Assembly: GCA_965153355.1 (NCBI GenBank)
Contig: OZ231126.1
Location: forward strand, 9,796,001 to 9,860,000
Source: Flaccisagitta enflata
Lineage: Eukaryota
Length of the DNA stretch: 64,000 nucleotides
Direction: 5' to 3'
The notes under the pieces are model-generated. The model searched no databases, was not told the DNA's origin, and saw only the letters and a program-made list of their open reading frames with translations. Within the stretch, counting starts at the first letter, position 1, and every line of letters begins with the position of its first letter. The position numbers were made by a program, and so were the translations under genes. Shown in pieces: positions 26,103-50,802 of this stretch.

Positions 26103-26900
26103 TTTTAGTTCTTTTATTTGTTTGTTCGTCTTTTTTCCTCGTCTGCTTTTTTGTTGTTTTTTTTCGTCGACCGATTGTAAATAAAAAGGGAATTTAAAAA
26201 GGATGATAATCGTAATTAATGAATGTCGCGAGAGGTGAAGTAATGGAAGAGGGGGAGAGAAACAAACCTCTTTCACTCAAGAGTGTAAAATCGAAACCGT
26301 TAGAAGAGGGCGGAGGGGTAGGGGGGAACGAAAATTGCTAGTTTTTTTTTTTAAGAAAAAACTTTGACCAGATCAGCAGAGAGTTAGTAGTAATGCCGAA
26401 TGTGAAAAAATAAGCCTTCGAACGCGACCGCACCAAAATCTCTCTAATGCGCGTGAGTTAGCCTTAAGCCTACAACTAAGGGAAGACTCGGAGAGGAAGA
26501 GGAACAGAGGACAATGCAATGACCGAGGTAGAACGAACAAACAATCGAACGAACGAACGAACGAACGAACGAACGAACGAGTGAAGAGGTAAAGGTGGGA
26601 AGGGGTGGAAAATCAAACATTACGTCGAAAATGCCAAGTTTTCGAGTGCTCGCGACGAAAGGGGGGGAGTTGGGACGATGCGGGAATAATAAGAAATATC
26701 AAAGTTACACAACGCGGGTTCATAAAAATCTGAACAGTATCTGGGTCCGCGACGGAAGGGGGTTAAAGATCACCAATTCTGTAAGATCGCTATGACCAAA
26801 AGATTGCTAACCCTGTAAGTTCGCCAAAACTATAAGTCTTTACATTTAGAGCCTCCATACAAAGTTTCATACAAATCCGTTGAAAAATGACAAAGTTATG

Positions 26901-27470
26901 TGAGGTTTTTGGGGACTGCCTACTATGGTATTTCTATGGAAGCTTGGAAGCAACCCACTACCCCCAAAAACTCTCCCCATTGTGCCCTGCATATTTGAAT
27001 GTACTAAATTCCTTTCCCCCTCATTTTGCCCCTTTGTGTGACTCTGTGCCTTGTAGGACTGTGTATTCAATGCCCCTTATCATTGTTGTGACCCGTTGCC
27101 TTACTGTTACATATTCCTGCTTCACATTCCTGTTATATACTCTGAACAGAGATCGCCTTTTTTGCCCTAGAACCTCACCCCAAAATGTATTCCCATTTTG
27201 TTTGTCCTCCACTGATAATATGTCTTCCTCTTCCTCACTCTCTCTGCCCAACTCCTATATAACCGGTCCCTCACCCAAGCTCAATGTTCTTTTTCTGTAC
27301 TACAATTGCTGTTACGCTTTTTGCTGAATGTTTCTATACTTCAACAAATTAAAACGTGTCTCCGCAATTACTTTGTCCTAAGAAAGGGAACCACCGCAAA
27401 CTAACATCCAGTGTAATTCAGTCACACCATAGTCTGTGTCATTTAGCTACGTTTAGCGACACAAACTTTA
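26901..27470 (+). repeat. 5' LTR
   Basis: TGAGG...CTTTA; same sequence as 50233-50802; TATATAA at 27256-62 and ATTAAA at 27348-53. Confidence 0.96.
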
Positions 27471-27472
27471 GG

Positions 27473-27490
27473 TGGTGTCACCGTCGTGAT
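27473..27490 (+). promoter_or_regulatory. Primer-binding site
   Basis: TGGTGTCACCGTCGTGAT starts 2 nt after the 5' LTR; TGG is complementary to the tRNA CCA end. Confidence 0.75.
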
Positions 27491-28845: not shown

Positions 28846-31800
28846 ATGGAAGGGGATCCGTGGGATGGGATAAATAAGTTCCTATTAGCAGAAAGGAAAG
28901 AAATAGTAGAGAAGTTTGGTTTTTATTACGACAGGAGATATTGGTTTCTGGTCAAGCCCAGTACCATCAGATCAGGGTCCTTTTTTCCTCTGGGGGGATA
29001 TCGAAGTTTAGGACTGAAGAGCCGATTTGTCGCTCCGGGTGAGACAAAACTCGACAAAAAACCCTTTGATGAGCTTAAAAATTTCAGAAGTAGCCAAATT
29101 TTTGAAATAGCCTCAAAACCGCGTGACAGTTTGAACGGTCCCAACGTTCTTTACTGGGTATATGGTTTTTTTTCTTTTGTCCCAATTTTACGGCCATGCA
29201 AAATCTGTTTGAGGAGAAATGAAAGGAACTGTGATTGCGATACTTTGTTGGTCGCATTCATTGAAGAGTTTCAAGAAGTGGTAAGGCAGAAACAAAAAAA
29301 TATCCATGAGCCATTCACCTATGATTTGAGAAGAAATTTCAACCTTAGGGTAGCTGAGGGCTATGATAAGGAGATACTCCCGGGGCCAGAAAGGCTCACA
29401 GATTATTACTTAGAAGGGCCCCTCATCTTGTCAGACAATATTGCTACCAAAGACGGAAAGCTGATTCCCGCCAAACCGCAAAGCAGAGGAGTGATAGAGG
29501 CATTAAAATCAGTTTTCTCTCACAAAAATGCCCCTGACAGCTCATTCTCTCTGCCCGCAGATTCTTTTGACCGTAATCCAAACGCAAGCCTGTCTGTCAC
29601 ATTGACTAACGACTCCCTCAATGAATCCTCGTTAGCCACTGATTCTCACACCCCTCGCAAAAGCCTTTGTGACGAGATTCACGTGGCAAGTCCTCACCAC
29701 CCCGCAGGCAAACCCTTCACCCCTGACTTATCATCGCCAGATCAGTCAACCCTCACAGCCGATGATATCACAGTAGTCCAACTCCACTCAGACCCCACAC
29801 CCACTCCAGACCTAACCACCCAAACCTCTGATCCTCAATCAAACGAAGATCCTAACCTTCCCGTGAGCGATCCAGTTGAGCCGATCGATAATCCGTTCAA
29901 ATTGACCGGCCTGTCTGCCGACCCTCTGCCTGGTGTTTCAGATCTCGATCCTTCTGTTGATCCGCCCGAGAGTATAAGCACGATGTCCACCATTACCGAG
30001 AGCGTAGACACTGAGACGGGGCAGAAAGGGGAGAAAGAGGTTTGTTATCCAGCAGCGTATTTAGCCTTTTGCTTCTTCTGTAGCGAAGAGCGTATGTTTA
30101 AGTTGGGGCACTGTCCGAAGATGGGATGCGGGATGCCATTTCGCATGGTGCCAAGTCTAAAAACAGATGCAATTCTTGACATAGAACGCTATTCACCCCC
30201 CTTTCCTGCCCGCATGCTGAGTGAGAGTAATGATGAGAGAGAAAAATACGTCTGTCAGGCCCTCTTCAATTCCGATGAACTCAAATTTGAGAACGGATTG
30301 TACGTAGTAGGGAAGAATGCGAGTGACCCGCTCTTGATCAACGCTGCCCGAGTGTTAAGGAACAGGGGCAAGCCGGGTAACTTGGACTCATTTGATGTCA
30401 GTGGGTTAAGCTCAGATGATGTTGTAACGAAGGAAAAAACAAAATTTGTCATTCACAGCTTACAACATAACTTCAACAGACAAAGACTTAAAGAGTATGA
30501 CTCATACTTCAACCTAGACATCAAAATCCTCAACATGATTTGGAACAAAGGGTTCACAGAACTCGGGCCAGTGGGTGAACATGACCTGCCCAGGGGTGTG
30601 TATCTGAGTGAATTTAGGAACCAGGTGGAAAAGGAGCTCACCAAAGGACGAGAAGTCTTTACCAAAATTTTTGATACGGAAAAGTATGATCATGGGTTGG
30701 GCTTCAGATATTGTGCGCACAAGAATGAATTTTCTACCTTTGGGGAAGCCGGTTGGGAAGTAGTTGACAAAACAAAATTGTGGGACCAAAAAACAATCCC
30801 TTTCCTGAGATCATTCAACTGCGGCCCTCGAAGGCTTTATCTGAAACTGATTCTTGACAAGTTCAAAGATCACACACCTGAAGAGCTTGATAACATGGGC
30901 CTCGAACCTCGCAATATCGAACTGATTAGGTTAGAGATCCAAAAAGCACAAGAGATTGACGACAAAAAACTCGAGTTCATGAGACTAAACAAACTGACGC
31001 GCGAACTGGCGCCTATTGACGGAAACCACAAGACGTACGAGCAGTACTTCGAGGCAATACTTAGTAAACACTTGAACAAAAAAATCCTGCCCCCCACTGC
31101 CTCTAAGGCCGACAAAGAGAAAATGCCTGGAGAAAGTGCATATGAGGATTTCATTGACCCCGAAGACATCCACGACCTGCTCAATTTCAGTTATGGTTTT
31201 AGTGCCCAGACAGATAAAACAAGAAAGGCAATACTAAAAAGGGGTACGACCAAACACCGAAACTTGCCATTGACTCGCGATGCTCCAGCAGAAGATCACT
31301 ATGACATGACCGCCCTCGAAAAAAAGGCGCATGAGACCCTCACAGAATACAATAGGAGTCGGGGGGTCGACATAGATAGCATAAGAGAGATACGCGAAAA
31401 AAGAGACCCTTATCGTGAGCCAAAGAACACCTATCTTAAAATCCTTAATGACCATGCCGAGGCTGACCGAAAATCTAACCCCAAGCATTCAACCCCAATA
31501 AGAAAAACGGTCTCGATCGGAAAGCATGGCGATGACGATGACGGTGATGACGATGATAGCGATGACGATGACGATAAGAGATCTAATAAGGAAGATGGCA
31601 AATCTGACGATAGGGATAAGAAAACCCCAGATGACCGAGCAAAATTTGACAATGACTTGAACGACACAGTTAATCCCTTTTTCGCTCCCAAAGAGAGACC
31701 CACCTCTAGTAAGGGGCTGGATAGTAGTCGCGGAGAGACCGTTGGTGACCGCTTATTGAGACTGTCCGGTTCGACCGTTGAACAAACCAAACCTAAAGAA

Positions 31801-34800
31801 GGAGAAGATAAGCCTGATTTAGGACAAGGTCACCACACCAGCGATGACGATGAAGACGATGATCATGATCGCGGTGGTCGAGGCTCAGGTGATCGAGGCC
31901 GCGATGATCGAGGCCAAGATGACCGAGGCCGAGATGACCACGAGCGCGAGCATCGTAAACAATCATCGAGAGATAACCCAAGAGGGGGAAATGGAGGGGG
32001 CGGATATGATGGGGGAGGAGGTGGACATGGTGGGGATGGAGACAATGGGGGAAATGATCGAAGGGGAGGCCGAAAGCCTTGGGAAAAGGGAAACAGCTAC
32101 CCCTATGACTACTCCACCAACCCCACACCATCGCAAAAGGCCGAGCATCATGAATTGACCAAAAGGCTTAAGTTGCTCAGTAAGGATGCCCCAGAATTCT
32201 CACTCAAAGATGATCGGTCGTTCAGAAGCTTTTATTGTGAGTGGAGCTTTCATTTTAGGTTTTTCTTGAAATTGGATGAGGCATCGCTCGTGTACAAATT
32301 TTGCACCAGTTTTCGCGACAGCGAGTTGCGCTTTCAGGTGCAACAAATGAGCACTGCCCATCCAGGGATAAAGGTTAACGCGCTCGCCGCAAAAATTGGG
32401 GCAACATTAGGGTTAGAAAGTACACAACATTATGAGTGTCAGCTGCAAAGGGCAAGCAGAAGAAGGGGTGAACAGGTGGGACTGTGGGCATTCCGCTTGA
32501 CCGAACTCTACAACCACAGTCTTCCCGCCAAAAATTTTTACGAGTTTGTCCACACAGATTTGTACAGGCAACAATTATTTAATTTATTTTGTAGAGGTAT
32601 CAATAATAAATATTTAGTCCAGGAAATGTATAAAAATGAGATAACCGAAATTTTCGCGGGAGTCGCTTTTTGCCAAAATCTCATCGTCTCTGACCAAGTT
32701 TCAGAGGCAGCGGCCAATTTTGGGAAAACTAACAGCAGCCACTCTTTCTCTATGGCTGATGAGGTTAAGCTCCTTACGAGGAAAAATCGCGATTTCAGCG
32801 ATATAAACGCATTGGGATATACTGACAAAAAGGATTACAAAAAGAAAAAAAGAAATGACAATTGCTTTTTGTGCGGGTCAGACAAACATTGGGCGAAAGA
32901 TTGTGCCCTATCCAAATACAAAGATAGAAAAGATGAGGTTTCCTTTATCAAGGTAAAAAAATCACCAGCCGAATGGCGGAATGAAAAAAAGAGGAAAAGA
33001 GCGAAGGAGCGGGTAAACAATCTTAATCTTGAGGTTGTAGAGAAAAGTGACTCGGGGTCAGATAGCGAAGACTCTCAAGCATCGGAGGCAACGGACTACA
33101 GACCGACCGATAGCGAAGGTGAGGCCGAGACCGGAGAGATCAACCATATCGGAGATAAAGCTAATGACTCTGGGTCAGAGAGTGAGAGCGATGAGATAGC
33201 ACACATGGTCAACGCTTTAAACAAAATGCTTGGCAGGAGAAAAGGCGGGAAGGCTGACGATAAAACCAACAAGCCGAAACACAAAAGCAACCGCATATTC
33301 ACTGACGGACCAAGCGACGTACCATGGGTGACTATCCAAGGATTAGCAGATTTTGTGGCCGATACAGGCTCTTCTTTGTCCCTCCTGCGTCCGCATGAAG
33401 TGCCCCCTTCGGCGAAAAAGATCAAAGTCGATGAGTCTATAGAAGGGGCAGATGGGGAGGTGATCAAATTGGAGAATAAAGTGGACCTGTACATTGATTG
33501 CACTAACAAGCAGTACAGATTGACAGACGATAACACAAAACCACTCATTTCGTTTTACATCTGTGCCGAGACAAAGTGTAACTTGCTCTCATACTTTGAC
33601 ATTGCCAAACTTGGAGTGATCATTAATGATGTTAATTTGGGGGGAAAGAGTGACGATGACAATGATTTCGATGACGATGATGAATGCGACATCGAAACAG
33701 TCACGTACACGATAGTAGACAAAACAGTCACGAAGACAGTCACAGCCACAGTCACTGCGAATGACAGCGGACATGACAGCGACGATGACAGTGACAGTGA
33801 GAGTGACAGCAAAAGTTCAAATCAAAATCATTTCGATCGTCTCCCTCAAAGAGAAAGATGGATAGCCAGACAGAAATCAAGACGGACAGTCAACATCATC
33901 GTCAATAACAGTGACAGTGACGATGACAGTGACGATGACAGTGACGATGACAGTGACGTCAGCAGTCAGTCGATCCGTACGCAATGTCCCTCTCTGGAAG
34001 GAAAACAGACGATCAGACAGACATCGAAACATACAACCAACCAAGATTCCTCACCCACTTACTTGACCGATCGCGGAGATCTTGATAAGCGTAATCTTGT
34101 CTCCCACTTGACTGATGTCGGCCGCCGAAATGCGCGGAAGACCGATCCGATGGTCATTAAAAGTGACCGACCACTGACGCCCGCGAATGACCGACCTCTT
34201 GAAAGAGATCGGAATGCCGACTCTCTCTTGCTTCCTCACCCACTATCTCTGACCGCAGCCCTGAAAAGCAAAGAAAAGATCGAGCATAAAGACATTAGAT
34301 CGGTCTCAAAAAGAGATGTAGTCAACCTAGTGAGTGGAATGTTGCCATTTGCCAAACTTCGTGTGTTTAACAAAAAAAATGCCCCTGTCACATCTGGCAT
34401 CTATTTGCAATGCCTCCTTGACAGCGGTTCAACCTTATGTTTGCTGTCAAAAAAATGGCTTGACAAGTCTGGGCTCACTTTCACCCCACTCCCTCACACC
34501 ATTCACGCGTCCTCTTTCACCGGCAATGATATCAACCTATTGCACAAAATTCAGGCCTATGTAGACTTTGGCACGGGGATCAAGAGACCAGTCACCTTTT
34601 TTATCTTTCAAGGTGACAGTAACTATGAGGGATTATTGGGGTATGACTGTCTGAAGCAAAATCATGTGACCCTCGATGCCGCCAATGACTCATTTTCCAT
34701 TGATGGCTTAGCCCACCCGGTGCACCGTTTTGACCTAGCTAATCAAATCAATGCTCTCCAGTCTGAATCGATCAACTTGGAGAAAATCCCCTTAGTGATT

Positions 34801-37800
34801 GAAAAGGGGGTATCGCTTCGCAGGGGTGATTCACTATTCCTGGGGGTAAAATTAGATCTATCCCAAGGAGGCACTGTCAGCTCGGGAGACGTGCTCTACA
34901 TAGAATTTCCCGAGGAGTATGAAAAGATGGGATTAAAGCCAACTGACCGGGTTGTTCAGATTTATCGCCTTAAGCTAAGGGGTGAAGTTTATGGGACGAA
35001 GGTATTTGTGGAATTCCCCAAAACAGCCGAAGTCGATATAATAAACTTACCCACTGACTCTCCTTTCGGCCACCTTTCTCCTTTATTGCCACCCGAACTC
35101 GAGGACGTTGCCAAAGTAAACGAGGCAAGGGTTCTCCACAATGTGTGTTTCGTTGAATCTGAAAGAGAAGCGGAAGAGTTGAGGGCTGGTAATCGGAAAA
35201 AGTGGCAGGCCCTTCATGACCTTTATTACGGGGCCAGTCCTGAGGAGTTGGCCGAATACTTATCAGCAAAAGGGCCAATCGACTTTAACTGCATTATCCT
35301 CTATCTCAAGAGAAGGCAACTATCTGCCGAGGAAAGGGAAGAGTTGAAGAAGGTTCGAAAGGAGAGAGCAGAATTTTGGACCTATGATGAGATTTTGACT
35401 CACTTTAAGGATCAAATTTCTAAAGTACCCGCTCAATTCAAACAAGACGTCATCAATTTGCTGTATGAAAGGAGGGGTGCCTTTGCGGGAAAATCCAGCC
35501 ACTTGAGGGTAGGGACAATAACCTGGTGTCTCGATGCTATTTATCCACGCGAATTGCAACTGCAAGTGCGTGCCAAACCCGTAAGCGGGCTGAAAAAGCT
35601 CATCACCAATCGCTTACAAAGGATAATGATGGATAGTGGGATCATTGAGCCGGCGAAGGGTAGGCCCGCAGCTTTACACAGGTTCCTTGTTGTACTAAAG
35701 CCTCAAGACAAAGTCAAAAAGCCAGTTGACAAGGCCTCTCTAGATGCCATGACAACGGCTGAGTTAGAAAAATGCTTTCGATGTGTCGTCGACTCGAGTA
35801 ACTTGTCATCTATGTTGTATAAGTCACCTCATCCCGACCCTCCCACCATTTTCCAAACATTGGGGAAAGTAGAATGCGACACTCTCAAAACTTGTGCTGA
35901 CCTCAAACGGGCATATGACCAAACCCGTGCTACAGAGGCTGCAAAGTTGTTGTTTGCATTTGAAACCCAGCTCGTTGGCATACCCCTTGCCGTTTTGAGT
36001 TCCATCCCCCAGGGTTGCCCGGAGGGATCTCGCATCAACCAACGCGTGAGTAGTCACGCGGTGGAGCGGCAAAATAACATACCTGCCAATCTCAGTTTTG
36101 ATGAGTTCAAGGTTGCGTATCGCAAACTTGACGATGACGAAATTGCTGCAGAAAAGCAATGTGCGTTGCGCCGGCGACGCGAAGAGAGAGCCCGGATGAT
36201 CGATCATCGAAGCGAAGGGAGAGAAAAGGATGATGAGGAGGAGTCCTCCTTCGAAAAGCAGGAGAATCGAGCGAAGAAGGAGAATTCCGAGGAAGGAGAG
36301 AAGAAGACGATCGGTCATCGGAAGTCGGTCAAGAGAGAGAGAGAGAGCGAGCATAATGGTATTGGTCGCGAGGTCTTTTTGGAGTCGCTCCAATTGCCAG
36401 TGACCACTGATCCTGACGCCCTCGATAACATGATTGTCAAAGGTTTGTCAACGGGCCCACCTGAGAAAAGGAGAAAGCTGATTTGTGAGAATTCAGCCCA
36501 TGTATACGCTGACGATATCATGGTGCAGTCTCCGACCGAAATTGACCGCATTAAAGAGCTTGAGATTGAGTCTAAAGCACTGCCCCGTCCTGCTCAAAAC
36601 GATAAGGAACTGCCTATCCTGCTACACTTGGCATTCCTCAATAGGGTACTATACTGCCTAGAGGAGGCCAATTTTTTGCTCAGTAGCACAAAAATCAACA
36701 TTCTGTGCCACCTGGAGGGTTTTGAGTACCTGGGCTTTAGCTTCAGGGGGAATATTATTTCCATAGCTCAAAAAACTATAAGTACTATCCAAGCCTTGCC
36801 AGACCCCAAAACCCTCAAGGAGACACAAAAAATCATCGGCATGACTGTCTATATAGGGCAGGTGATGCGCCATGGACGCATCATGACCGGTTTCCTCAGT
36901 GACAAGCTAAAGAAAGGCGTGACCTTCAAATTTACCGATGACGACAGGGAGAAATTCCAGAGGCTCAAAGACTTGTTATGTCAAGTTCATATGAAAGGGT
37001 ATCTTTACGCTTTAGACACCAATGTGAAAGACAAGACATTTATTTTGTACAGTGACTGGAGCTATGTAGTGCACAGCTCCAGTTCTTGCCTTCTTGTAAA
37101 ACTACACACCAAGGAGGGTACCACTGTCCTACCCGCTGTCTCTGACTCTCGCTCGCTCGTTGACTCTGTCCGCTCAAAAGGTTCGACCATCTGTGAGATG
37201 GCCGCCCTCGTAAGTTCACTCCAGCACCTTAGACCGATCCTCTTCCTTGCCCCGTTCATTTGCTACACCGACAACATTGCGCTCCAGTTCCTGATGAACC
37301 GGCGCTTTGCTACCAATGTGGCTTTGGACTCGACTGTGGCTCAGAGGCTGCTCCTATCGGTCAATGACCTATTCTTTCAATGTCGCTATGTGCCCTCTGA
37401 GCTACAACTCGCAGATGGACTGTCCAGGATCAAATTAGAGACAGGGAAGACCGTTGACCAACTCCTTACCAATTCAAATAAAATCACGGATTTCGACTAT
37501 GTCGAGCGTATGGTCAGACCAAACAAAGCGGACGAAAATGAGTCTCAGTTTCTAGAAAGGGCGGAAAGAAACATTGACATGATCCGCCGACTAGAGACCG
37601 AGGCCGGGGATACAAGGGGGGATTTGTACCAACTCTTCAGGAAAACCCACTTCAGTGTGAAAAACAAGGAAGTGCTCAGTCTGACCGACCGCCCGATCTC
37701 ACCTCTTGAAGAAGTTGACCCCCAGACCAAGCTTGAGACCGACGATAGTCCTCCACGGTCGATCGGTTTCTTTGATCAGGAAAATGAGGGCGGGCTAATG

Positions 37801-40539
37801 ACCGAGGCCGGCGGAGATGAGAGTGTGAAGGCCGACCGAACGGGAAAACGATCATCGCTAGACAGCGATGGTGGGAAGACCGATGACGATGATCGGTCAC
37901 GTGACCAGGCCGAAATCTGCAAAGGGGGAAATGACACACAGGATAATAAGGTGGTAAATGAGCTGAACTTTACCAAAATCACATCCCCGCGTGAGAAAAA
38001 AATCTCTCCACGCAAATCTACACCCAGTCACGCCCCCCTTGACAAAGAATCAATTGACAAAATGACACAGGATGAGTTGATTGATGTCTTTAACCAAAAG
38101 CCCATTATCCCCGATCATCAGCCCTCCGATTTTGACTCCCTTCCCATTAACCAACTTGAAGAGGAGGAAAACCGGATCGCAACTGATAAGTACCAAGAGA
38201 CCCCATACGAGTACCGAACGGACATTTTAGACATGCTTCTTCGCTCAAACACAAATGACCGATCAGGCCTAAGCACCAAAGGACAAAAGATCGCGAGACA
38301 AGACAGTCTTATGATCACCCGATACCCAGATTTAGTTGCCACTATCATCCATGACACCCCCGATGGTATTTTAAGCGATGGGTTTGGGCATGAACAAAGC
38401 AGCGTTCTGGATTATCTCTGTGAGATCAACTACATATTGCACACTACGGGCCCACAAGATCCTACTCCCCTCTTTGAAAGTTATGAAGACGCACATCGTT
38501 ACTTCAAAAGGGGGCGCTTAGCCGATGAATTTAGGGATCAATACAAATTTTGGATCGCATGTCAAACCCGAGATCTAGACATGCAGGTCTTACGCAAGTT
38601 GGTCAAAGGTGAGCTGTCCCTAGAAGATGACTCAGTTGACATAATTAGGAAAACGAGTCGTTTGGCTCATGTTCTGATCAATGACCTCGACTCACTATTT
38701 ATGTTCCAAGACCTTTTGTTCAAACTCGTTTTTCCCACTCGCGGGCAAAAGGCAAGGGCCCTTCTCATTCTCAGCCCCCAAGACTTGGGCAGGATCGCCC
38801 TTAGGCACCACGGGCTGGCTCACAGGGGCGGGTTATACACCTACACCATTCTAGCTAATCGCTACTACACCGTTAACATGTATCAGACCATCTTGGATCA
38901 AATCAAGGGGTGTAGTGTGTGTGCCGATTTCCACCTAAATAAAAAGAAATCCTACACTGCCCTTACCAACGTTCTGGACCTCTCGAGCATCTCCCAGATC
39001 AGTGTGGATTTGAAGGGACCCCTCGAAAGGGCCCCTACCACCCCCAGTAAGAAAAAGGGGAACCCTTGGGACGAGAAGCGCGTTAGAAAGTTCTGGATCC
39101 TGTGCATCGTGAATCCAATCACCGGCCTAAACCAGTTCTTTTATCTGCCGGACAAAAAGGCGTCAACTGTGGTCAGGTGTCTGTATGAAAAGTTCATACG
39201 CTTCCACTCAGGGATAACACACGTGCAACTTGACGAAGGCCCAGAATTTGCAAATGCGTGCCAGGCGGAACTGGCAAGCCTAATGAAGTTTTCCCTTAAG
39301 TTTACCTGCAAGGCAAACCCCAGGGCAAACAGAGGAGAGGGTTCCGTTCAGAAGCTGTCAAACTTATTAAAGGCTGTGTTACAAGGATCCGAGTTCAGAA
39401 TCAAGGACAAACTGACAGACCTGTCCATTATCTCCAACTCTGTATACTTCTCAGAGATAAGTGGGCGCGCCGCCAATGATGCCCATGGGGTCAGCAACGG
39501 CGACGCACTAGCCTACTCCCCTGCCATCATCTGTGGGAAGGAGGAATACAAACACAAGGGTCAGCACTGGACAGACGTCTCGGACTCGATGAGGGAAATC
39601 GTTAGACTGATAAGGGAACATTACAACTGCTTTATCACTCTCAAACGATCAAACTTACACACCTTCGAGTCACTCAATATCAAAAAGGGGGACGTGGTGT
39701 ACTTCAGGTCCTATTCTAAGGCCCACCCGGTCTCTATAGGTCTCAAATCGCTTTGTCCGTCCTGGAGTTTGGGCCGTGTGGAAACGATCTTATCCAGGTC
39801 CGCGGCCATAGTCAAAAACATACAGACGGACGCACGGGTACGTCGCCATATCAGCGATATTCACCCCATCTGGGACCAAGGATCATGGGCACTAACTACC
39901 AACTGGAAGAGTAATTTCGATTCTTACCAAACTGAGAAGGCTGGTCTTGACCTCAACGACTCGGTCGAGACGGCGAAGAGAAGAGACGACGATGCCATCA
40001 AAGCTCGATCCGCGAATCAGGCCAGTAGAGGCGAGGACAACCCCCCCGCTGGTCCGACCAAAGTGACCGACGGTCGCTCGCGAGATGAAAAGCTGTCGTT
40101 GAAGAATGACCGAGTGAGTAAATCCGATAAGTCCGTGAAATCCAGCAAAGGATCGAGGGCCGACCGTCCGAAGCACAGAGAGAGCGACGATCACAAAGTG
40201 AGTCCGAAACCGCGCACGCGACTTCGATCGAAGTATGATGGTGCGTCCGAAGATGAACAGAAAATGACCGAGGACGTGATGAGTAAGATCCGAAAGGCGA
40301 AGAAAAGCACAAAGTCTGTTTCTGAGCGAAAAAATCATGACGAGGGAGACGATTGGAGCATTAAGGGAAACAACGGCTCCCTCAAACGCAGATCGCGAAA
40401 GTCAAGCAATAGGGCATCGCGTTCATTTGACAGCGATGACCACGAGGATGAGGATAGTCAGGATAGTCTGCCTTCCAAAGACAATCGTCGTCGATCTAAG
40501 AGGCTGGCAAGAAAGCCTCGGGTCGACTACAGAGAGTAG
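28846..40539 (+). CDS. 3897-aa Gag-Pol polyprotein (long N-terminal extension, CA-like, CCHC, PR1, PR2, RT, RNase H, integrase)
   Basis: RRRGEQVGLWAFRLTEL Gag-like motif; CFLCGSDKHWAKDC (32863-32904); ADTGS (D at 33361); LDSGS (D at 34420); ADLKRAYDQ, PQG, YADD (36505); RNase H YSDW/EMAAL/YTDN/ADGLSR; integrase HHGLAH...CSVC, VDLKGP, LDEGPEF, RGEGSV. Confidence 0.96.
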   Translation: MEGDPWDGINKFLLAERKEIVEKFGFYYDRRYWFLVKPSTIRSGSFFPLGGYRSLGLKSRFVAPGETKLDKKPFDELKNFRSSQIFEIASKPRDSLNGPNVLYWVYGFFSFVPILRPCKICLRRNERNCDCDTLLVAFIEEFQEVVRQKQKNIHEPFTYDLRRNFNLRVAEGYDKEILPGPERLTDYYLEGPLILSDNIATKDGKLIPAKPQSRGVIEALKSVFSHKNAPDSSFSLPADSFDRNPNASLSVTLTNDSLNESSLATDSHTPRKSLCDEIHVASPHHPAGKPFTPDLSSPDQSTLTADDITVVQLHSDPTPTPDLTTQTSDPQSNEDPNLPVSDPVEPIDNPFKLTGLSADPLPGVSDLDPSVDPPESISTMSTITESVDTETGQKGEKEVCYPAAYLAFCFFCSEERMFKLGHCPKMGCGMPFRMVPSLKTDAILDIERYSPPFPARMLSESNDEREKYVCQALFNSDELKFENGLYVVGKNASDPLLINAARVLRNRGKPGNLDSFDVSGLSSDDVVTKEKTKFVIHSLQHNFNRQRLKEYDSYFNLDIKILNMIWNKGFTELGPVGEHDLPRGVYLSEFRNQVEKELTKGREVFTKIFDTEKYDHGLGFRYCAHKNEFSTFGEAGWEVVDKTKLWDQKTIPFLRSFNCGPRRLYLKLILDKFKDHTPEELDNMGLEPRNIELIRLEIQKAQEIDDKKLEFMRLNKLTRELAPIDGNHKTYEQYFEAILSKHLNKKILPPTASKADKEKMPGESAYEDFIDPEDIHDLLNFSYGFSAQTDKTRKAILKRGTTKHRNLPLTRDAPAEDHYDMTALEKKAHETLTEYNRSRGVDIDSIREIREKRDPYREPKNTYLKILNDHAEADRKSNPKHSTPIRKTVSIGKHGDDDDGDDDDSDDDDDKRSNKEDGKSDDRDKKTPDDRAKFDNDLNDTVNPFFAPKERPTSSKGLDSSRGETVGDRLLRLSGSTVEQTKPKEGEDKPDLGQGHHTSDDDEDDDHDRGGRGSGDRGRDDRGQDDRGRDDHEREHRKQSSRDNPRGGNGGGGYDGGGGGHGGDGDNGGNDRRGGRKPWEKGNSYPYDYSTNPTPSQKAEHHELTKRLKLLSKDAPEFSLKDDRSFRSFYCEWSFHFRFFLKLDEASLVYKFCTSFRDSELRFQVQQMSTAHPGIKVNALAAKIGATLGLESTQHYECQLQRASRRRGEQVGLWAFRLTELYNHSLPAKNFYEFVHTDLYRQQLFNLFCRGINNKYLVQEMYKNEITEIFAGVAFCQNLIVSDQVSEAAANFGKTNSSHSFSMADEVKLLTRKNRDFSDINALGYTDKKDYKKKKRNDNCFLCGSDKHWAKDCALSKYKDRKDEVSFIKVKKSPAEWRNEKKRKRAKERVNNLNLEVVEKSDSGSDSEDSQASEATDYRPTDSEGEAETGEINHIGDKANDSGSESESDEIAHMVNALNKMLGRRKGGKADDKTNKPKHKSNRIFTDGPSDVPWVTIQGLADFVADTGSSLSLLRPHEVPPSAKKIKVDESIEGADGEVIKLENKVDLYIDCTNKQYRLTDDNTKPLISFYICAETKCNLLSYFDIAKLGVIINDVNLGGKSDDDNDFDDDDECDIETVTYTIVDKTVTKTVTATVTANDSGHDSDDDSDSESDSKSSNQNHFDRLPQRERWIARQKSRRTVNIIVNNSDSDDDSDDDSDDDSDVSSQSIRTQCPSLEGKQTIRQTSKHTTNQDSSPTYLTDRGDLDKRNLVSHLTDVGRRNARKTDPMVIKSDRPLTPANDRPLERDRNADSLLLPHPLSLTAALKSKEKIEHKDIRSVSKRDVVNLVSGMLPFAKLRVFNKKNAPVTSGIYLQCLLDSGSTLCLLSKKWLDKSGLTFTPLPHTIHASSFTGNDINLLHKIQAYVDFGTGIKRPVTFFIFQGDSNYEGLLGYDCLKQNHVTLDAANDSFSIDGLAHPVHRFDLANQINALQSESINLEKIPLVIEKGVSLRRGDSLFLGVKLDLSQGGTVSSGDVLYIEFPEEYEKMGLKPTDRVVQIYRLKLRGEVYGTKVFVEFPKTAEVDIINLPTDSPFGHLSPLLPPELEDVAKVNEARVLHNVCFVESEREAEELRAGNRKKWQALHDLYYGASPEELAEYLSAKGPIDFNCIILYLKRRQLSAEEREELKKVRKERAEFWTYDEILTHFKDQISKVPAQFKQDVINLLYERRGAFAGKSSHLRVGTITWCLDAIYPRELQLQVRAKPVSGLKKLITNRLQRIMMDSGIIEPAKGRPAALHRFLVVLKPQDKVKKPVDKASLDAMTTAELEKCFRCVVDSSNLSSMLYKSPHPDPPTIFQTLGKVECDTLKTCADLKRAYDQTRATEAAKLLFAFETQLVGIPLAVLSSIPQGCPEGSRINQRVSSHAVERQNNIPANLSFDEFKVAYRKLDDDEIAAEKQCALRRRREERARMIDHRSEGREKDDEEESSFEKQENRAKKENSEEGEKKTIGHRKSVKRERESEHNGIGREVFLESLQLPVTTDPDALDNMIVKGLSTGPPEKRRKLICENSAHVYADDIMVQSPTEIDRIKELEIESKALPRPAQNDKELPILLHLAFLNRVLYCLEEANFLLSSTKINILCHLEGFEYLGFSFRGNIISIAQKTISTIQALPDPKTLKETQKIIGMTVYIGQVMRHGRIMTGFLSDKLKKGVTFKFTDDDREKFQRLKDLLCQVHMKGYLYALDTNVKDKTFILYSDWSYVVHSSSSCLLVKLHTKEGTTVLPAVSDSRSLVDSVRSKGSTICEMAALVSSLQHLRPILFLAPFICYTDNIALQFLMNRRFATNVALDSTVAQRLLLSVNDLFFQCRYVPSELQLADGLSRIKLETGKTVDQLLTNSNKITDFDYVERMVRPNKADENESQFLERAERNIDMIRRLETEAGDTRGDLYQLFRKTHFSVKNKEVLSLTDRPISPLEEVDPQTKLETDDSPPRSIGFFDQENEGGLMTEAGGDESVKADRTGKRSSLDSDGGKTDDDDRSRDQAEICKGGNDTQDNKVVNELNFTKITSPREKKISPRKSTPSHAPLDKESIDKMTQDELIDVFNQKPIIPDHQPSDFDSLPINQLEEEENRIATDKYQETPYEYRTDILDMLLRSNTNDRSGLSTKGQKIARQDSLMITRYPDLVATIIHDTPDGILSDGFGHEQSSVLDYLCEINYILHTTGPQDPTPLFESYEDAHRYFKRGRLADEFRDQYKFWIACQTRDLDMQVLRKLVKGELSLEDDSVDIIRKTSRLAHVLINDLDSLFMFQDLLFKLVFPTRGQKARALLILSPQDLGRIALRHHGLAHRGGLYTYTILANRYYTVNMYQTILDQIKGCSVCADFHLNKKKSYTALTNVLDLSSISQISVDLKGPLERAPTTPSKKKGNPWDEKRVRKFWILCIVNPITGLNQFFYLPDKKASTVVRCLYEKFIRFHSGITHVQLDEGPEFANACQAELASLMKFSLKFTCKANPRANRGEGSVQKLSNLLKAVLQGSEFRIKDKLTDLSIISNSVYFSEISGRAANDAHGVSNGDALAYSPAIICGKEEYKHKGQHWTDVSDSMREIVRLIREHYNCFITLKRSNLHTFESLNIKKGDVVYFRSYSKAHPVSIGLKSLCPSWSLGRVETILSRSAAIVKNIQTDARVRRHISDIHPIWDQGSWALTTNWKSNFDSYQTEKAGLDLNDSVETAKRRDDDAIKARSANQASRGEDNPPAGPTKVTDGRSRDEKLSLKNDRVSKSDKSVKSSKGSRADRPKHRESDDHKVSPKPRTRLRSKYDGASEDEQKMTEDVMSKIRKAKKSTKSVSERKNHDEGDDWSIKGNNGSLKRRSRKSSNRASRSFDSDDHEDEDSQDSLPSKDNRRRSKRLARKPRVDYRE

Positions 40540-41904: not shown

Positions 41905-41978
41905 TCACTTGTTGTAGCATCTGTAAATATCGTTGTACTAGCATTGATGATAATCTTTGTCGATGTAGATATCGTTCA

Positions 41979-46364: not shown

Positions 46365-48887
46365 GTGCCCCAACAATCACCCAAATCTCAAGATGCGTTG
46401 AAACTACTCATCTTAACAACCACTTCTCTGTTCTCCCCTCCTCTCTCCGCCCCTGACTGTTCACTTCGTGTGTGTTCTCTCTGTCCGATGTCTGGCCCAC
46501 AAATCTGTCAATCTTACAGAGCGAGGAGAGAAGAGGCGAGAACGAACGCAGAAGTCCTCAAGCGCGTGCTCTTTCTAATATTCTTCTTCAAGATTGTTCA
46601 ACCGAGTGCTGTCACTATTAACATCCCTGACCCTCGGGCTCCCTGCATTAGTTTAGAAATGGCCCTGCCCATTGTCAAAATACAAAATTCACCCCCCTCG
46701 ACTCTCGATATGAGCTTTGATTTTGATATAAAGACCCTGTATTCTCAAAGGTACGGGCAAAAGGCCCCCACTAGTGATAATCATAAAGAAGTGTTTAAAT
46801 GCGCCACTCAGGTTGGGGAAGAAATATCCAAATTGATAGACTCTTTCATTTTACGTGTCATTGACTTGATTGAACTCAGACAGGAATCTTATTTGACCGA
46901 TGGGGAAAATTACAATGACGCGGACAAACAGACCAACAAACCTCGCCGTCGCGAAACCAGAAGTGGGATGAATCCTCGCTCGAACAGATCATCTCATGGT
47001 TTGTCCGAGGGAGAAAAATCTCATCTTCGAGAAGCGATAGAGCTGACAAATGAACAGTGGTCGTTTTCTGACCACTGGCTTGACGAACAGATTAGGAGCG
47101 ACCTCTCGGGGGGGACAAATTCAACTGAGTTTGGTGACATCAAAATTAGGAACAAAAGGGATCCCGCGACATTCATAAGTATTGTCATATCTCTTATCGC
47201 GTTGACAGCTACGGCGTCAACCAGTCTGTTCCTCGGCGCGCGTCTGGAAAAACTGGTTGACTATGTAGACTCATTAAGCAAAGCCGTTGAAGGTGATTGG
47301 CAATCAATTCAAGTAGGATTCAAAAATCTGATTTTATTAAAGGATGGATATGGTTCCATGGCTGCCGGCGCTCATTACATGAGTCAAACCATCCGGCGCC
47401 TACTAGAATATAATTTATGTCACATACAACAAACTAGACTCTTTTTCGAGATGAGAGCGATTGCCAACCGCCTTGACGGCATTTTTGAAAGCTTGGTATT
47501 AGGAAAGTTCAGCACTAAGATTCTCCCTCTACCACTCCTTAAGGAAATTTTCTCCCAGAGTTCGATCGCCGATGATGTTTTGAGCAAAGCTGTTCCGACC
47601 TCGTTCTATCAAGGGGCTAGTCTGTCTGTCCTCTCTGCCGATCGAGCTAAAAAGAGCGTCCGTCTAATATTTGTCGCACCACGCATCGAGCGAGAGCCGA
47701 GTTATCGAGTTTTGAAAGTACACTCTGTTTCATCAACTATATCCGTGAATGGCCGCATCTTTGACCGAGTTTTCTCTTTCGATGCTGACAAGATTGCTAT
47801 CCCGATCGATCTCTACGAAAAACATCACGATGATATGATCTTATCTGCAGCGGAGGTGCAGCAATTACGCATCCCGACCGAGTGTAGCTTTACCAACGGT
47901 CTGTTTGGATGTAGGAATTTTCTCTCTCTCCCAAGTCAGGTTTCATCGTGTCTCGCAGCTGTATTCGCTAGAGATTGGCCGAAGATGCAGTCCCAGTGTC
48001 GGATCAGAATGATCCCTCAGGCCCATCATCACCCAGTGTCCACTAGTTCAGGTTCCACGGGGATGTTACTTAGCTGCGTTTCTACTTACCGTCTGTACGG
48101 AATTGATCACACAAAATCAAAACACTACCAGAGAGAGGATTTAACCAAGATGGCCACCCGTGACGCATCAACTTCTTTGTGCGTCTGGGTGCCTTTACAC
48201 TTTAGTAAAATTCAAATTTTGGACGATCAAGGAAATAGACTAGATGAAATTGAACAGGATACCAAACTTATGATCAGGAATGGGTTGGTAAGAGACATAA
48301 CTGATTACGAAACTAAACATTTCCACTATTTCCAACGACAAGTTACAATGGACAACATGAGTCTTCTCAACTTTACTGGTCATTACGAGGACATTAATTC
48401 ACATTGGGGAAATATTGGCAAGCATGATCTGCCCGTTTTTGATATGAATGAAGAGCGTAAGATTTTCCTTGAGATTGGACTGGCCGTTGTAGTTGCGTTC
48501 ATCCTATGTTTGTATTTGGCCAAACTTGCGATGTGTCTGAGACGAAGGTACGCCCGTCCAACTGCCGGCCAGGCTGGTAGAGCCCGAGCTCAAATCACTT
48601 ATGCCCGCTCCGCCTCTCCGACGGTTACTCTTAACCTCCCACCAGCCTTGCCCCCGCCAAATCCTAACCGCCAAAACGATTCCCAAGATGATGATCTAAC
48701 CGAACCCAAGGATCGTCGCCCACGAGGCTTGAATCCCCCCTCGCCGACCAGTCAAGTGAGCTTTGTCGAAGATTGCAGCGGTTGTCCCGATCGCGATCCA
48801 ATCTTTGACCCCCGCGATTTTGTTGGTCGCGAGAGTCATCCTCCACAGACGCTTCCTCCCAAACCAGCGCGTGTGCAGACCACCTAA
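46365..48887 (+). CDS. env: Envelope glycoprotein, class I fusion-protein architecture (first ATG 46488)
   Basis: Hydrophobic VLFLIFFFKIV, furin-type RNKR (47148-59) followed by hydrophobic DPATFISIVISLIALTATASTSLFLG, heptad-like LEKLVDYVDSLSKAV, Cys-rich ectodomain, TM IFLEIGLAVVVAFILCLYLA (~48462-48521), Pro-rich tail. Confidence 0.88.
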   Translation: MPQQSPKSQDALKLLILTTTSLFSPPLSAPDCSLRVCSLCPMSGPQICQSYRARREEARTNAEVLKRVLFLIFFFKIVQPSAVTINIPDPRAPCISLEMALPIVKIQNSPPSTLDMSFDFDIKTLYSQRYGQKAPTSDNHKEVFKCATQVGEEISKLIDSFILRVIDLIELRQESYLTDGENYNDADKQTNKPRRRETRSGMNPRSNRSSHGLSEGEKSHLREAIELTNEQWSFSDHWLDEQIRSDLSGGTNSTEFGDIKIRNKRDPATFISIVISLIALTATASTSLFLGARLEKLVDYVDSLSKAVEGDWQSIQVGFKNLILLKDGYGSMAAGAHYMSQTIRRLLEYNLCHIQQTRLFFEMRAIANRLDGIFESLVLGKFSTKILPLPLLKEIFSQSSIADDVLSKAVPTSFYQGASLSVLSADRAKKSVRLIFVAPRIEREPSYRVLKVHSVSSTISVNGRIFDRVFSFDADKIAIPIDLYEKHHDDMILSAAEVQQLRIPTECSFTNGLFGCRNFLSLPSQVSSCLAAVFARDWPKMQSQCRIRMIPQAHHHPVSTSSGSTGMLLSCVSTYRLYGIDHTKSKHYQREDLTKMATRDASTSLCVWVPLHFSKIQILDDQGNRLDEIEQDTKLMIRNGLVRDITDYETKHFHYFQRQVTMDNMSLLNFTGHYEDINSHWGNIGKHDLPVFDMNEERKIFLEIGLAVVVAFILCLYLAKLAMCLRRRYARPTAGQAGRARAQITYARSASPTVTLNLPPALPPPNPNRQNDSQDDDLTEPKDRRPRGLNPPSPTSQVSFVEDCSGCPDRDPIFDPRDFVGRESHPPQTLPPKPARVQTT

Positions 48888-50215: not shown

Positions 50216-50232
50216 AAGGAATTGGGGGGATA
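50216..50232 (+). promoter_or_regulatory. Polypurine tract
   Basis: AAGGAATTGGGGGGA-TA immediately before the 3' LTR. Confidence 0.75.
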
Positions 50233-50802
50233 TGAGGTTTTTGGGGACTGCCTACTATGGTATTTCTATGGAAGCTTGGAAGCAACCCACTACCCCCAAA
50301 AACTCTCCCCATTGTGCCCTGCATATTTGAATGTACTAAATTCCTTTCCCCCTCATTTTGCCCCTTTGTGTGACTCTGTGCCTTGTAGGACTGTGTATTC
50401 AATGCCCCTTATCATTGTTGTGACCCGTTGCCTTACTGTTACATATTCCTGCTTCACATTCCTGTTATATACTCTGAACAGAGATCGCCTTTTTTGCCCT
50501 AGAACCTCACCCCAAAATGTATTCCCATTTTGTTTGTCCTCCACTGATAATATGTCTTCCTCTTCCTCACTCTCTCTGCCCAACTCCTATATAACCGGTC
50601 CCTCACCCAAGCTCAATGTTCTTTTTCTGTACTACAATTGCTGTTACGCTTTTTGCTGAATGTTTCTATACTTCAACAAATTAAAACGTGTCTCCGCAAT
50701 TACTTTGTCCTAAGAAAGGGAACCACCGCAAACTAACATCCAGTGTAATTCAGTCACACCATAGTCTGTGTCATTTAGCTACGTTTAGCGACACAAACTT
50801 TA
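50233..50802 (+). repeat. 3' LTR
   Basis: 570 bp, no differences from the 5' LTR seen by eye. Confidence 0.96.

Follow-up and report, generated by a model that had tools for sequence, protein, structure and literature searches.

Two retropepsin-fold domains, one of them very divergent, in the Gag-Pol polyprotein of a giant, probably Ty3/gypsy-like retroelement

Does a single polyprotein encoded in the genome of Flaccisagitta enflata contain two retropepsin domains, and if so, how could these domains work with each other? The question arises from a stretch of 64,000 nucleotides (contig OZ231126.1, positions 9,796,001 to 9,860,000 of the forward strand; hereafter, the window), in which a sequence-only reading had claimed two such domains separated by a D/S-rich linker. 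As shown in Table 1, the locus belongs to an intact LTR retroelement of 23.9 kb lying within the window. The LTR pair is 99.8% identical (the comparison of flank with flank by blastn gave 573 bp at 99.825%), and the LTR ends, trimmed by eye, read TGAGG...CTTTA, TG...CA termini being absent from the element. We also considered the Troyka superfamily, which was ruled out, as its definition (PMC12440569) gives CG...CG termini and 3-bp target-site duplications, unlike those of the element.

Table 1. Features of the element, with positions in the window
Feature	Position (strand)	Basis
Target-site duplication TATG (4 bp)	5' copy 26897..26900 (+); 3' copy 50803-50806	Read directly beside the LTR ends
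5' LTR, 570 bp, termini TG...TA	26901..27470 (+)	blastn of flanks
Candidate primer-binding site TGGTGTCACCGTCGTGA	27473..27489 (+)	Inferred from position: 2 nt 3' of the LTR, TGG start
ORF1, single 3,897-aa Gag-Pol polyprotein, no internal stop	28846..40539 (+)	Open reading frame
CCHC zinc knuckle, nucleocapsid-like, residues 1337-1354	32854..32907 (+)	Pfam zf-CCHC / zf-CCHC_5, E 0.02
PR1, divergent retropepsin-fold domain, residues ~1492-1596	33319..33633 (+)	AF2, Foldseek, VIA, hhalign to PR2
Asp/Ser-rich low-complexity linker, residues 1597-1830	33634..34335 (+)	Composition
PR2, orthodox retroelement aspartic protease, residues 1831-1963	34336..34734 (+)	Pfam, hhalign
Reverse transcriptase C-terminal part (YADD) and RNase H	36487..37305 (+)	Pfam RVT_1 (residues 2548-2632), RT_RNaseH (2730-2820)
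Integrase, zinc-binding and catalytic core domains	38758..39453 (+)	Pfam Integrase_H2C2 and rve
ORF2, 799 aa, candidate class I fusion glycoprotein, env-like	46488..48887 (+)	ESM Atlas features and sequence features
Polypurine-tract-like AAGGAATTGGGGGGATA	50217..50232 (+)	Inferred from reading the sequence: directly 5' of the 3' LTR
3' LTR, 570 bp	50233..50802 (+)	blastn of flanks and reading of LTR ends

Pfam matches along ORF1, every one of them below the gathering cut-off, follow the order CCHC, Asp protease, RVT_1, RT_RNaseH, Integrase_H2C2 and rve, that is, the Gag(CCHC)-PR-RT-RNase H-IN order of Ty3/gypsy-type elements. The top PDB sequence match of the RT/RNase H region was the Ty3 RT/RH structure 4ol8 (E 1e-4), and that of the integrase was PFV integrase (E 2.5e-6). 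The element is probably Ty3/gypsy-like, as judged by its LTRs, its domain order and these top matches.

The two domains, which we call PR1 and PR2, are marked by the motifs FVADTGSSLSLL and CLLDSGSTLCLL, respectively. The catalytic residues that had been proposed are indeed encoded where expected, Asp1506 at codon 33361-33363 and Asp1859 at codon 34420-34422, and all the strings that had been quoted for the two domains lie in a single open frame, IEGADG and NLLSYFDI downstream of the PR1 motif and ASSFTG and GLLGYDCL downstream of that of PR2. The span originally given for the pair, 33320-34680, covers PR1 and most of PR2, but the second domain extends to ~34734. In PR1, the catalytic pattern of two hydrophobic residues followed by Asp-Thr/Ser-Gly-Ala/Ser is present as VADTGS (residues 1504-1509, with D1506-T-G-S), together with a flap-like EGADGE and LLSYFDI. 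PR2 carries an LPFAKLRVF lead-in, D1859-S-G-S, SFTGN and LLGYD, so that both the Asp-Ser/Thr-Gly motif (LLDSGS) and the hydrophobic-hydrophobic-Gly-x-Asp motif (LLGYD) are found in it. Six D[ST]G tripeptides occur in ORF1, and only those of PR1 and PR2 fit the wider pattern hydrophobic-hydrophobic-D-[ST]-G-[AS]. Since this pattern is unique to these two of the six, and PR1 passed the fold, profile-profile and conservation tests described below, the motifs go beyond what chance would give.

PR2 has the features of an orthodox retroelement protease. Its matches to Pfam were to gag-asp_proteas (E 4e-5; 24.6 bits, below the cut-off of 28.2), Asp_protease_2 (E 1.7e-4; 22.7 bits, below 24.3) and RVP (E 0.015; 16.1 bits, below 20.7), and its catalytic Asp was invariant in the 10 aligned sequences. 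The HMM search suggested by the sequence-only reading gave sub-cut-off matches for PR2 and no match for PR1: none of nine PR1 sequences matched any Pfam family at E values up to 10. PDB sequence and profile searches with PR1 likewise gave chance matches only (neuropilin, E 0.9; Met-tRNA ligase, E 1.2).

The retropepsin fold of PR1 had been set beforehand as a test by which the two-domain reading could be refuted. The AF2 model of PR1 built from an alignment of nine relatives reached a pLDDT of 86.9 and a pTM of 0.78, the prediction from the single sequence being uninformative (pLDDT 37). When this model was searched with Foldseek, the best 50 PDB chains were all retroviral proteases, headed by the M-PMV protease (7bgt_A; E 6e-4, TMq 0.60). 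In VIA-align, run over 48,161 chains, the best 11 rows were all retropepsins or retropepsin-like proteins, with Z from 10.2 down to 6.8: EIAV protease (Z 10.2, rmsd 2.9, 96 aligned residues), FIV (9.9), M-PMV (9.2), XMRV (8.6), HIV (8.6), RSV (8.4) and Ddi1 (8.1) were among them, and a covalently tethered HIV-1 protease dimer occupied row 11. ESM Atlas features also grouped PR1 with RVP clusters (0.94), family or clan being common to all of the 10 best matches. These models indicate that PR1 is a real retropepsin-fold domain, though sequence searches of Pfam and PDB miss it. As had been pointed out, LSYFD replaces the usual LG-D motif in PR1, with Ser (LLS-Y-F-D) at the position of the conserved Gly that precedes the C-terminal helix of retropepsins. 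Across the nine aligned PR1 sequences this position is occupied by Ser in six, Ala in one and Gly in two (P0010 and P0004).

The two domains are homologous, but remotely so. In hhalign, the PR1 profile aligned with the PR2 profile over 86 columns with 93.5% probability (E 2.3e-7, score 45.1), and among the aligned columns are DTG, the Gly of the flap and LLSY.D/LLGYD; in 100 column shuffles the maximum score was 18.1 (mean 11.7, sd 2.1). PR1 and PR2 are ~20% identical, with different flap and lead-in motifs, and BLASTP aligned them only around DTG/DSG (E 0.52). Against other retroelement proteases, hhalign gave 99% and a score of 105 for PR2, and 73% and 33.8 for PR1.

Conservation in relatives, the other point on which the sequence-only reading could have failed, was also found. 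Five divergent lineages carry PR1 and PR2 in the same ORF; they are represented by 13 ORFs that have PR2 with a full PR1 and three more that have PR2 with the C-terminal part of PR1. Of 20 sequences, 19 retain the catalytic Asp of PR1, as do 5/6 lineages, and the same proportion of lineages retain Asp-Thr/Ser-Gly-Ser/Ala at PR1 identities of 21-48%. The exception is P0015, in which Tyr replaces the catalytic Asp; this ORF looks decayed. It has no PR2 within 309 aa, and low-complexity sequence of the SLSLSL type forms its end. In BLASTP against P0024, PR1 forms an island of similarity (residues 1478-1593; 34.5% identity, E 2e-14) and a second island starts at 1813. The P0024 cluster itself, with ten members >99.7% identical and no variable column in PR1, linker or PR2, is uninformative on constraint, since its members are nearly the same. 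Searches for homologous proteins with the PR1 profile added little, with five proteins in the longer search and one in the near search, and the region query returned one full-length polyprotein. In JGI metagenome contigs and IMG/VR, the sequence patterns used revealed no relative of PR1 or PR2, and the relatives of this giant dual-protease element come so far only from marine assemblies.

The linker behaves differently from the domains it joins. Its 234 residues are rich in Asp (17.5%) and Ser (12.8%), in agreement with the original description, and 73% of them are polar or of disorder type. Among relatives its length ranges from 234 to ~620 aa and its sequence is not conserved; BLASTP was unable to align it with P0024 and P0010, though both flanks align. 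With a length so variable, the geometry between PR1 and PR2 is not fixed.

From these results we conclude, with high confidence, that the window carries an intact, recently inserted Ty3/gypsy-like LTR retroelement with an env-like gene, whose single Gag-Pol holds two homologous retropepsin-fold domains: PR2, the orthodox protease, and PR1, a very divergent paralogue placed directly after the nucleocapsid zinc knuckle. Both retain the catalytic Asp-Thr/Ser-Gly, and the tandem is conserved in a small family of giant elements.

How the two domains would act is a different matter. The predicted complex of PR1 with PR2 scored 0.82 (best of three controls, 0.00), a value that does not favour the heterodimer over homodimers. 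In the calibration, made on microbial pairs, 51 of 78 solved complexes attained this mark, as did 2 of 108 mismatched pairs; the prediction did not draw on the PR1 and PR2 alignments built here. The predicted runs share at least 87% of their contacts, with a partner pLDDT of at least 78. In the predicted interface, PR1 20-26 (DTG) faces PR2 27-33 (DSG), the flaps 50-56 and 59-66 come together, and so do the termini. This predicted pair has the canonical geometry of a retropepsin dimer and is compatible with an intramolecular pseudo-dimer; because retropepsin dimers have been solved abundantly, the score may reflect the memory of the model.

We tentatively propose that both domains are catalytic and that, held on one chain by the flexible acidic linker, they would pair in cis to form a canonical two-Asp retropepsin dimer with an asymmetric active site. 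Such a natural single-chain pseudo-heterodimer would be pepsin-like in logic, and it could allow the giant polyprotein to start its own processing without dimerizing with a second polyprotein first. Being dimerizable domains on the same chain, PR1 and PR2 would presumably meet each other before any other partner. Engineered tethered dimers of the HIV-1 protease activate prematurely and block particle assembly. A cis dimer of PR1 and PR2 would consequently need regulation. Counting against the proposed cis dimer are the Ser at the conserved Gly of PR1, its lack of a Pfam match, the Tyr of P0015 and the variable linker.

Several of these same observations bear on other explanations. That PR1 might be a chance motif, or what remains, without function, of another element inserted in nested or chimeric form, was suggested by its lack of Pfam and PDB sequence matches and by the poor single-sequence model, but this idea is effectively refuted by the confident fold obtained once relatives were supplied and by the like placement of PR1 in intact ORFs of 3,897, 4,066 and 4,233 aa that are colinear throughout. 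The variants between copies (40 of 100 listed) point the same way, with 6 of 9 synonymous in PR1 and 6 of 17 in the linker, numbers so small that they give a weak hint. PR1 could instead be a pseudo-protease, its fold kept for dimerization, scaffolding or regulation, for example by keeping PR2 in an inactive state or by seeding the dimerization of polyproteins, while PR2 alone cuts. Consistent with this, the G86S and G86A mutants of the HIV-1 protease, which are nearly inactive, were among the Foldseek matches of PR1, whose own Ser sits at the conserved Gly position; all the Pfam protease models miss PR1, P0015 has lost the catalytic Asp, and PR1 lies much farther than PR2 from generic retroelement proteases in the hhalign comparison. 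However, a PR1 free of catalysis is hard to reconcile with the retention of its motif in 5/6 lineages as diverged as these, and the sole exception is the apparently decayed ORF of P0015. We regard the pseudo-protease as improbable.

The remaining alternative is that PR1 and PR2 are independent proteases, each homodimerizing between two polyproteins and differing in cut sites or timing; for instance, in a 430-kDa precursor that arises with no frameshift between Gag and Pol, PR1 could act on the Gag part and PR2 on the Pol part. The catalytic triad is retained in both domains, their low identity and unlike flap and lead-in motifs fit different specificities, and the long, variable and unconserved linker resembles a spacer that cleavage could remove. 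Moreover, according to PMC2642776, retropepsins are single-domain peptidases, and the homodimer is the rule for every characterized one. Independent proteases on one chain would, however, need some way of not pairing with each other, and against this stands the confident prediction of a canonical PR1:PR2 pair, with the caveat that it may echo solved retropepsin dimers. Overall, we consider two independent enzymes somewhat unlikely.

The comparison with known systems shows where the tandem is ordinary and where it is not. As in the retropepsins of Ty3/gypsy elements and retroviruses (clan AA; Pfam RVP, gag-asp_proteas and Asp_protease_2), PR1 and PR2 have a fold of ~100-130 aa in which Asp-Thr/Ser-Gly follows a pair of hydrophobic residues, the flap forms a hairpin and the C-terminal helix is capped by hydrophobic-hydrophobic-small-x-D. 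Unlike the retropepsins of known elements, with one domain per polyprotein and an active site built by two chains, the two diverged copies are here on the same chain. To our knowledge, the protease of every characterized retrovirus or LTR retrotransposon consists of two identical chains, and the conserved natural tandem departs from that rule; our search of the literature outside subscription journals and Repbase reports brought up no LTR retroelement that carries a second protease domain. A doubled pol enzyme domain has a precedent in RNase H, which is duplicated in pol of retroviruses and of Tat-type plant elements, with one copy strongly diverged, although this concerns RNase H and not the protease.

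Two homologous Asp-Thr/Ser-Gly units on one polypeptide are also what characterizes the pepsins (family A1), whose two-lobed form was reportedly traced by Tang et al. in 1978, as cited in PMC2642776, to a retropepsin-like ancestor that duplicated and fused, which is the classical view. Pepsins differ in their larger lobes, compact arrangement and inter-lobe sheet; the domains found here are retropepsin-sized and separated by a long low-complexity linker, PR1 matched retropepsins at Z 8-10 and pepsin lobes at Z ~5 only, and the tandem falls outside A1 as defined by a compact two-lobed body. The engineered tethered HIV-1 protease (PDB 3ka2; VIA Z 6.8 to PR1) likewise has two retropepsin units on one chain, but it is man-made, with near-identical units, a short linker and one active site, whereas the tandem of the element is natural, highly asymmetric and evolutionarily conserved. 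If PR1, linker and PR2 do form a natural single-chain retropepsin that assembles in cis, through a disordered linker, into one asymmetric two-Asp active site, which we see as a real possibility but hold with reserve, this protein would be a living example of the duplication-and-fusion intermediate that has long been assumed to link dimeric retropepsins with two-lobed pepsins. The need for protease dimerization times particle maturation, and the cis arrangement would then represent a new retroelement route to control protease activation without polyprotein dimerization. The tandem would open two old questions to direct experiments, the origin of two-lobed pepsins from retropepsin-like monomers and the control of assembly when the protease halves are tethered beforehand.

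Downstream of ORF1, the element encodes its putative envelope. The nearest ESM Atlas clusters of ORF2 were Baculo_F / Fusion_gly / Gypsy-env (score 0.96, 221 of 256 features common), recognition being low (1511), and ORF2 matched nothing in Pfam. The protein has an N-terminal hydrophobic segment, an RNKR sequence at 221-224 with a hydrophobic run directly after it, and a TM towards the C-terminus (~657-685). In its overall plan the element resembles the giants described in PMC6431247, namely the gypsy-like Burro of planarians, with a 4,873-aa ORF1 and an env-like region, and Ogre of legumes: the internal region is longer than 20 kb (22.8 kb in this element), the polyprotein of several thousand residues has a large unexplained extra part, and there is an env-like fusion glycoprotein. 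We detected no sequence relationship to these giants, and the passages of PMC6431247 on Burro mention one PR. The element described here carries its env as a separate downstream ORF. It is a rare intact case combining an internal region of more than 20 kb with its own candidate fusion-glycoprotein gene.

ORF1, the Gag-Pol polyprotein of the LTR retroelement in this window, carries two retropepsin-fold domains that are homologous to each other and each have a catalytic motif, in a tandem that is conserved among relatives. The sequence-only reading had proposed such a pair, PR1 and PR2. PR1 spans residues about 1492-1596 and PR2 residues 1831-1963, and all the strings quoted in that reading were found in ORF1, with the catalytic aspartates at residues 1506 and 1859, as it had placed them; the linker it called D/S-rich (1597-1830) is 234 residues long, with 17.5% Asp and 12.8% Ser. 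There are six D[ST]G tripeptides in ORF1, and only at PR1 and PR2 do they stand in a hydrophobic-hydrophobic-D-[ST]-G-[AS] context.

The element is 23.9 kb long (internal region, 22.8 kb), and the direct repeats flanking ORF1 extend over 573 bp at 99.8% identity. These LTRs are near-identical, so the insertion is recent. The Pfam matches in ORF1 run in the order CCHC, aspartic protease, RVT_1, RT_RNaseH, Integrase_H2C2, rve, and by sequence the closest solved structures are the RT/RNase H of Ty3 (4ol8, E 1e-4) and the integrase of prototype foamy virus (E 2.5e-6); judged by its sequence, the element is highly divergent and of Ty3/gypsy or retrovirus type. The insertion site lies in satellite DNA (family D13) in which 143- and 162-bp units alternate and whose unit sequence resumes on both sides (26813-26909 and 50858-51860), with higher-order repeats of about 305 bp in family D12.

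Features of the element (window positions unless ORF1 residues are given)
Feature	Position	Strand	Description
Target duplication	26897-26900 and 50803-50806		TATG, 4 bp; abuts outer LTR ends
5' LTR	26901-27470		570 bp, termini TGAGG...CTTTA; sequence-level reading
Candidate primer-binding site	2 nt 3' of 5' LTR		TGG-initiated
ORF1	28846-40539	+	3,897 residues, stop-free frame, holds PR1 and PR2
CCHC knuckle	ORF1 residues 1337-1354		Pfam, below curated cut-off
Aspartic protease	ORF1 residues 1854-1938		Pfam, below curated cut-off
RVT_1	ORF1 residues 2548-2632		Pfam, below curated cut-off
RT_RNaseH	ORF1 residues 2730-2820		Pfam, below curated cut-off
Integrase_H2C2	ORF1 residues 3319-3360		Pfam, below curated cut-off
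rve	ORF1 residues 3432-3492		Pfam, below curated cut-off
ORF2	46488-48887	+	799 aa, class I F-type fusion glycoprotein candidate
Purine-rich tract	directly 5' of 3' LTR
3' LTR	50233-50802		570 bp, termini TGAGG...CTTTA; sequence-level reading

No Pfam family matched ORF1 residues 1 to ~1,300. This N-terminal part (28846-32800, + strand) precedes the capsid/nucleocapsid-like part and has two blocks, 31-173 and 396-751, conserved in the related proteins P0024 (4,233 aa) and P0010 (4,066 aa); block 31-173 is Cys-rich, with a CxxC...CxC motif. Immediately 5' of the RT YADD lies a highly charged, E/K/R-rich stretch of ~115 residues (about 2422-2538; 36100-36460, + strand) that is missing from P0024, the BLASTP alignment breaking at 2422/2538 in the window and at 2838/2850 in P0024.

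PR2 matched the Pfam families gag-asp_proteas (E 4e-5), Asp_protease_2 (1.7e-4) and RVP (0.015), all under gathering scores, and aligned end to end, weakly, with the Ddi1 retropepsin-like domain (E 0.56). Combined with seven relatives in a profile, PR2 matched a second profile, built from five other retroelement proteases, with 99% probability (score 105), and the catalytic Asp was kept in 10/10 aligned sequences. By these comparisons PR2 can be taken as the element's orthodox protease.

Pfam gave no match with the window's own PR1, nor, up to an E of 10, with any member of a set of nine PR1 sequences, and PDB searches with PR1 by sequence and by profile gave no relevant match. BLASTP of PR1 against PR2 aligned the DTG/DSG area alone (E 0.52), and the single-sequence AlphaFold2 (AF2) model was uninformative (pLDDT 37). 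With residues 1440-1990 as the query, HMMER was run exhaustively over 1.84 billion representatives and found no more than 21 proteins (E up to 1e-3), several of them spanning PR1; these relatives and one separately found full-length relative made up the nine-sequence alignment (21-48% identity to the window). It starts with P-x-[VI]-x-[IV]-x-G-[LI]-G and hydrophobic-hydrophobic-D-T/S-G-S/A, and continues through a flap-like G-x-x-G turn and a hydrophobic strand to an invariant L-x-Y-x-D-I-x-K-L block, a pattern that reads as retropepsin-like.

The AF2 model built from this alignment reached a pLDDT of 86.9 and a pTM of 0.78. With it, Foldseek retrieved retroviral proteases as all of the top 50 PDB chains (best, M-PMV 7bgt_A, E 6e-4, TMq 0.60). 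When the model was compared with 48,161 chains by a method independent of Foldseek, the first eleven entries were of retropepsin type: EIAV (Z 10.2, rmsd 2.9, 96 aligned), FIV (9.9), M-PMV (9.2), XMRV and HIV-1 (both 8.6), RSV (8.4), Ddi1 (8.1), foamy virus (7.7), Rickettsia APRc (7.4), HTLV (7.0) and, at 6.8, a covalent dimer of HIV-1 PR; lobes of the pepsin family ranked below them, at Z of about 5. Profile alignment of PR1 with PR2 by hhalign gave 93.5% probability (E 2.3e-7, score 45.1) over 86 columns, among them DTG/DSG, LLSY.D/LLGYD and the glycine of the flap, as against a maximum score of 18.1 when the columns of the PR2 alignment were shuffled 100 times (mean 11.7, sd 2.1); the PR1 profile scored lower with generic retroelement proteases (73%, score 33.8) than with PR2. 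The language-model features of PR1 adjoin RVP clusters (0.94), with the same family or clan in 10/10 best matches. The possibility, raised in the sequence-only reading, that PR1 lacks a retropepsin fold is therefore not borne out by the fold, homology and language-model results.

The same reading had also allowed that PR1 might not be conserved, and here too the results favour the pair. Local HMM searches for PR1 and PR2 covered 52 proteins, 13 of which have both domains in full on one ORF: that of the window, P0010 and P0047 (4,066 aa), and ten from the P0024 cluster (as long as 4,265 aa). P0003, P0004 and P0005 combine the C-terminal part of PR1 with a full PR2. Grouped at 50% identity, the ORFs with PR1, full or C-terminal, and PR2 fall into five lineages. 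Against P0024, BLASTP of the window polyprotein gave colinear blocks with a PR1 island at 1478-1593 (34.5% identity, E 2e-14); the next block begins at 1813 and the linker, about 267 residues in P0024 and about 620 in P0010, is unalignable. The closest relative, P0002 (53% identity over the best-matching stretch), carries PR1, then a different linker of 190 aa and a conserved PR2 lead-in (...VVNLVSGMLPFAKLRVF...), after which the frame degenerates. PR1 is also present in P0015, the P0019 cluster, P0023, P0009, P0049-51 and P0025, whose ORFs end too early to judge PR2. P0008 has 336 residues ahead of its PR2 in which PR1 was not matched (E up to 1e-5), which is uninformative given linkers of up to about 620 residues in relatives. 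In the more generic element P0017, the 873 upstream residues lack PR1, as expected of ordinary single-protease elements. In the P0019 lineage a strongly hydrophobic, TM-like segment (…VLFCFISVLLCVILPLLFFIAPI…) follows PR1.

Near-identical sequence occurs in runs that carry a coded organism label (study P1) and in runs from a single further study (P2), which are marine metagenomes, at 0.56-0.68 of sampled words. Of 100 copy variants from four runs, 40 were classified; among these 40, synonymous and non-synonymous changes numbered 6 and 3 in PR1, 4 and 3 in PR2, 6 and 11 in the linker, and 3 and 4 in the flanks, a weak hint that PR1 and PR2 are under stronger constraint than the linker. A metatranscriptome contig of 175 nt maps to 33403-33575, within PR1, with 2 differences, which is not proof of transcription.

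As a clan-AA review (PMC2642776) describes them, LTR-retroelement proteases are single-domain, dimerising enzymes, and pepsins are two-domain monomers, with duplication of the single-domain form as their presumed origin. A two-chain prediction of PR1 with PR2, made without supplied alignments, scored 0.82 over three runs (best of three controls, 0.00), a mark attained for 51 of 78 solved complexes and for 2 of 108 mismatched pairs; contact agreement between runs was at least 87% and partner pLDDT at least 78. The predicted interface is that of a canonical retropepsin dimer, PR1 residues 20-26 (DTG) lying opposite PR2 residues 27-33 (DSG), flap facing flap and termini adjacent. Because retropepsin dimers are among the most often solved complexes, the score speaks to compatibility only: in the model PR1 and PR2 look like compatible halves, and binding itself is not implied.

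Two dimerisation-competent domains on one chain would encounter each other at high effective concentration, and on this ground we tentatively infer a PR1:PR2 pseudo-heterodimer formed in cis to be the most likely mechanism, though at less than even odds. That PR1 and PR2 are instead two independent homodimeric proteases, each dimerising as retroelement proteases do, is somewhat less likely. A non-catalytic PR1 is less likely again: Asp-Thr/Ser-Gly is found in 19 of the 20 sequences covering the site and in 5/6 lineages. The sole exception, P0015, has Tyr in place of the catalytic Asp (LCYSGSE, residues 533-540), and may be a decayed copy, since there is no PR2 within 309 residues past its PR1 and the ORF enters SLSLSL-type sequence. 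At the conserved retropepsin Gly position the nine PR1 sequences have Ser in the window and five others, Ala in one, and Gly in P0010 and P0004, so that on this one classical motif the window's PR1 falls short. The two-protease arrangement recurs among the relatives, and an artefact as its source is in effect excluded. Domain duplication has a precedent in RNase H, which is duplicated in retroviral and Tat-type pol genes.

Full-text literature searches, with subscription journals and Repbase outside their coverage, turned up no case of two protease domains in an LTR retroelement. PMC5408684 was rejected as a precedent, 'two protease' meaning something else there. A giant-transposon review (PMC6431247) describes Burro, with a 4,873-aa ORF1 and an env-like region, beside Ogre, mentions one PR, and states that inter-LTR material rarely exceeds 10 kb.

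ORF2, the env-like gene, gave no match in Pfam. Its language-model features are closest to the Baculo_F, paramyxovirus-F (Fusion_gly) and Gypsy-env clusters (0.96, 221/256 shared), with low recognition. It has a hydrophobic segment at the N-terminus, RNKR at 221-224 with a hydrophobic, fusion-peptide-like stretch right after it, and a transmembrane segment at the C-terminal end (about 657-685). ORF2 thus resembles a viral fusion glycoprotein of class I (F-type), and the element may therefore be an env-bearing endogenous retrovirus-like agent of a protist. The 5.9-kb gap between pol and ORF2 (40540-46487) has no long + strand ORF (maximum 188 aa, 41338-41904) and contains (TGAA)n-type microsatellite arrays at 42460-42746.

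Elsewhere in the window, an 11-bp tandem repeat array with 163 registered copies occupies 3374-5500, the 4-6 kb region shows extreme strand asymmetry (AT skew -0.5, GC skew +0.45), and 23193-23632 holds a second array, of a 31-bp repeat. Blocks at 8018-9061, 13184-14228, 14421-14819 and 16125-16886 (families D7-D10 and D16), 98-100% identical and present in two to three copies within 9 kb, overlap minus-strand ORFs, one weakly matching NPHP3_N, and are a recent local segmental duplication. Host-type ORFs, all on the minus strand (17888-18937, 55626-56453, 58012-58941 and 60362-62638), encode SDE2 (E 6e-28), EH (E 3e-16 and 6e-9) and weak PH domains. Taken with the marine origin of the matching runs, they point to a microbial eukaryote of the sea, and the long, uninterrupted exons suggest that this host is intron-poor.
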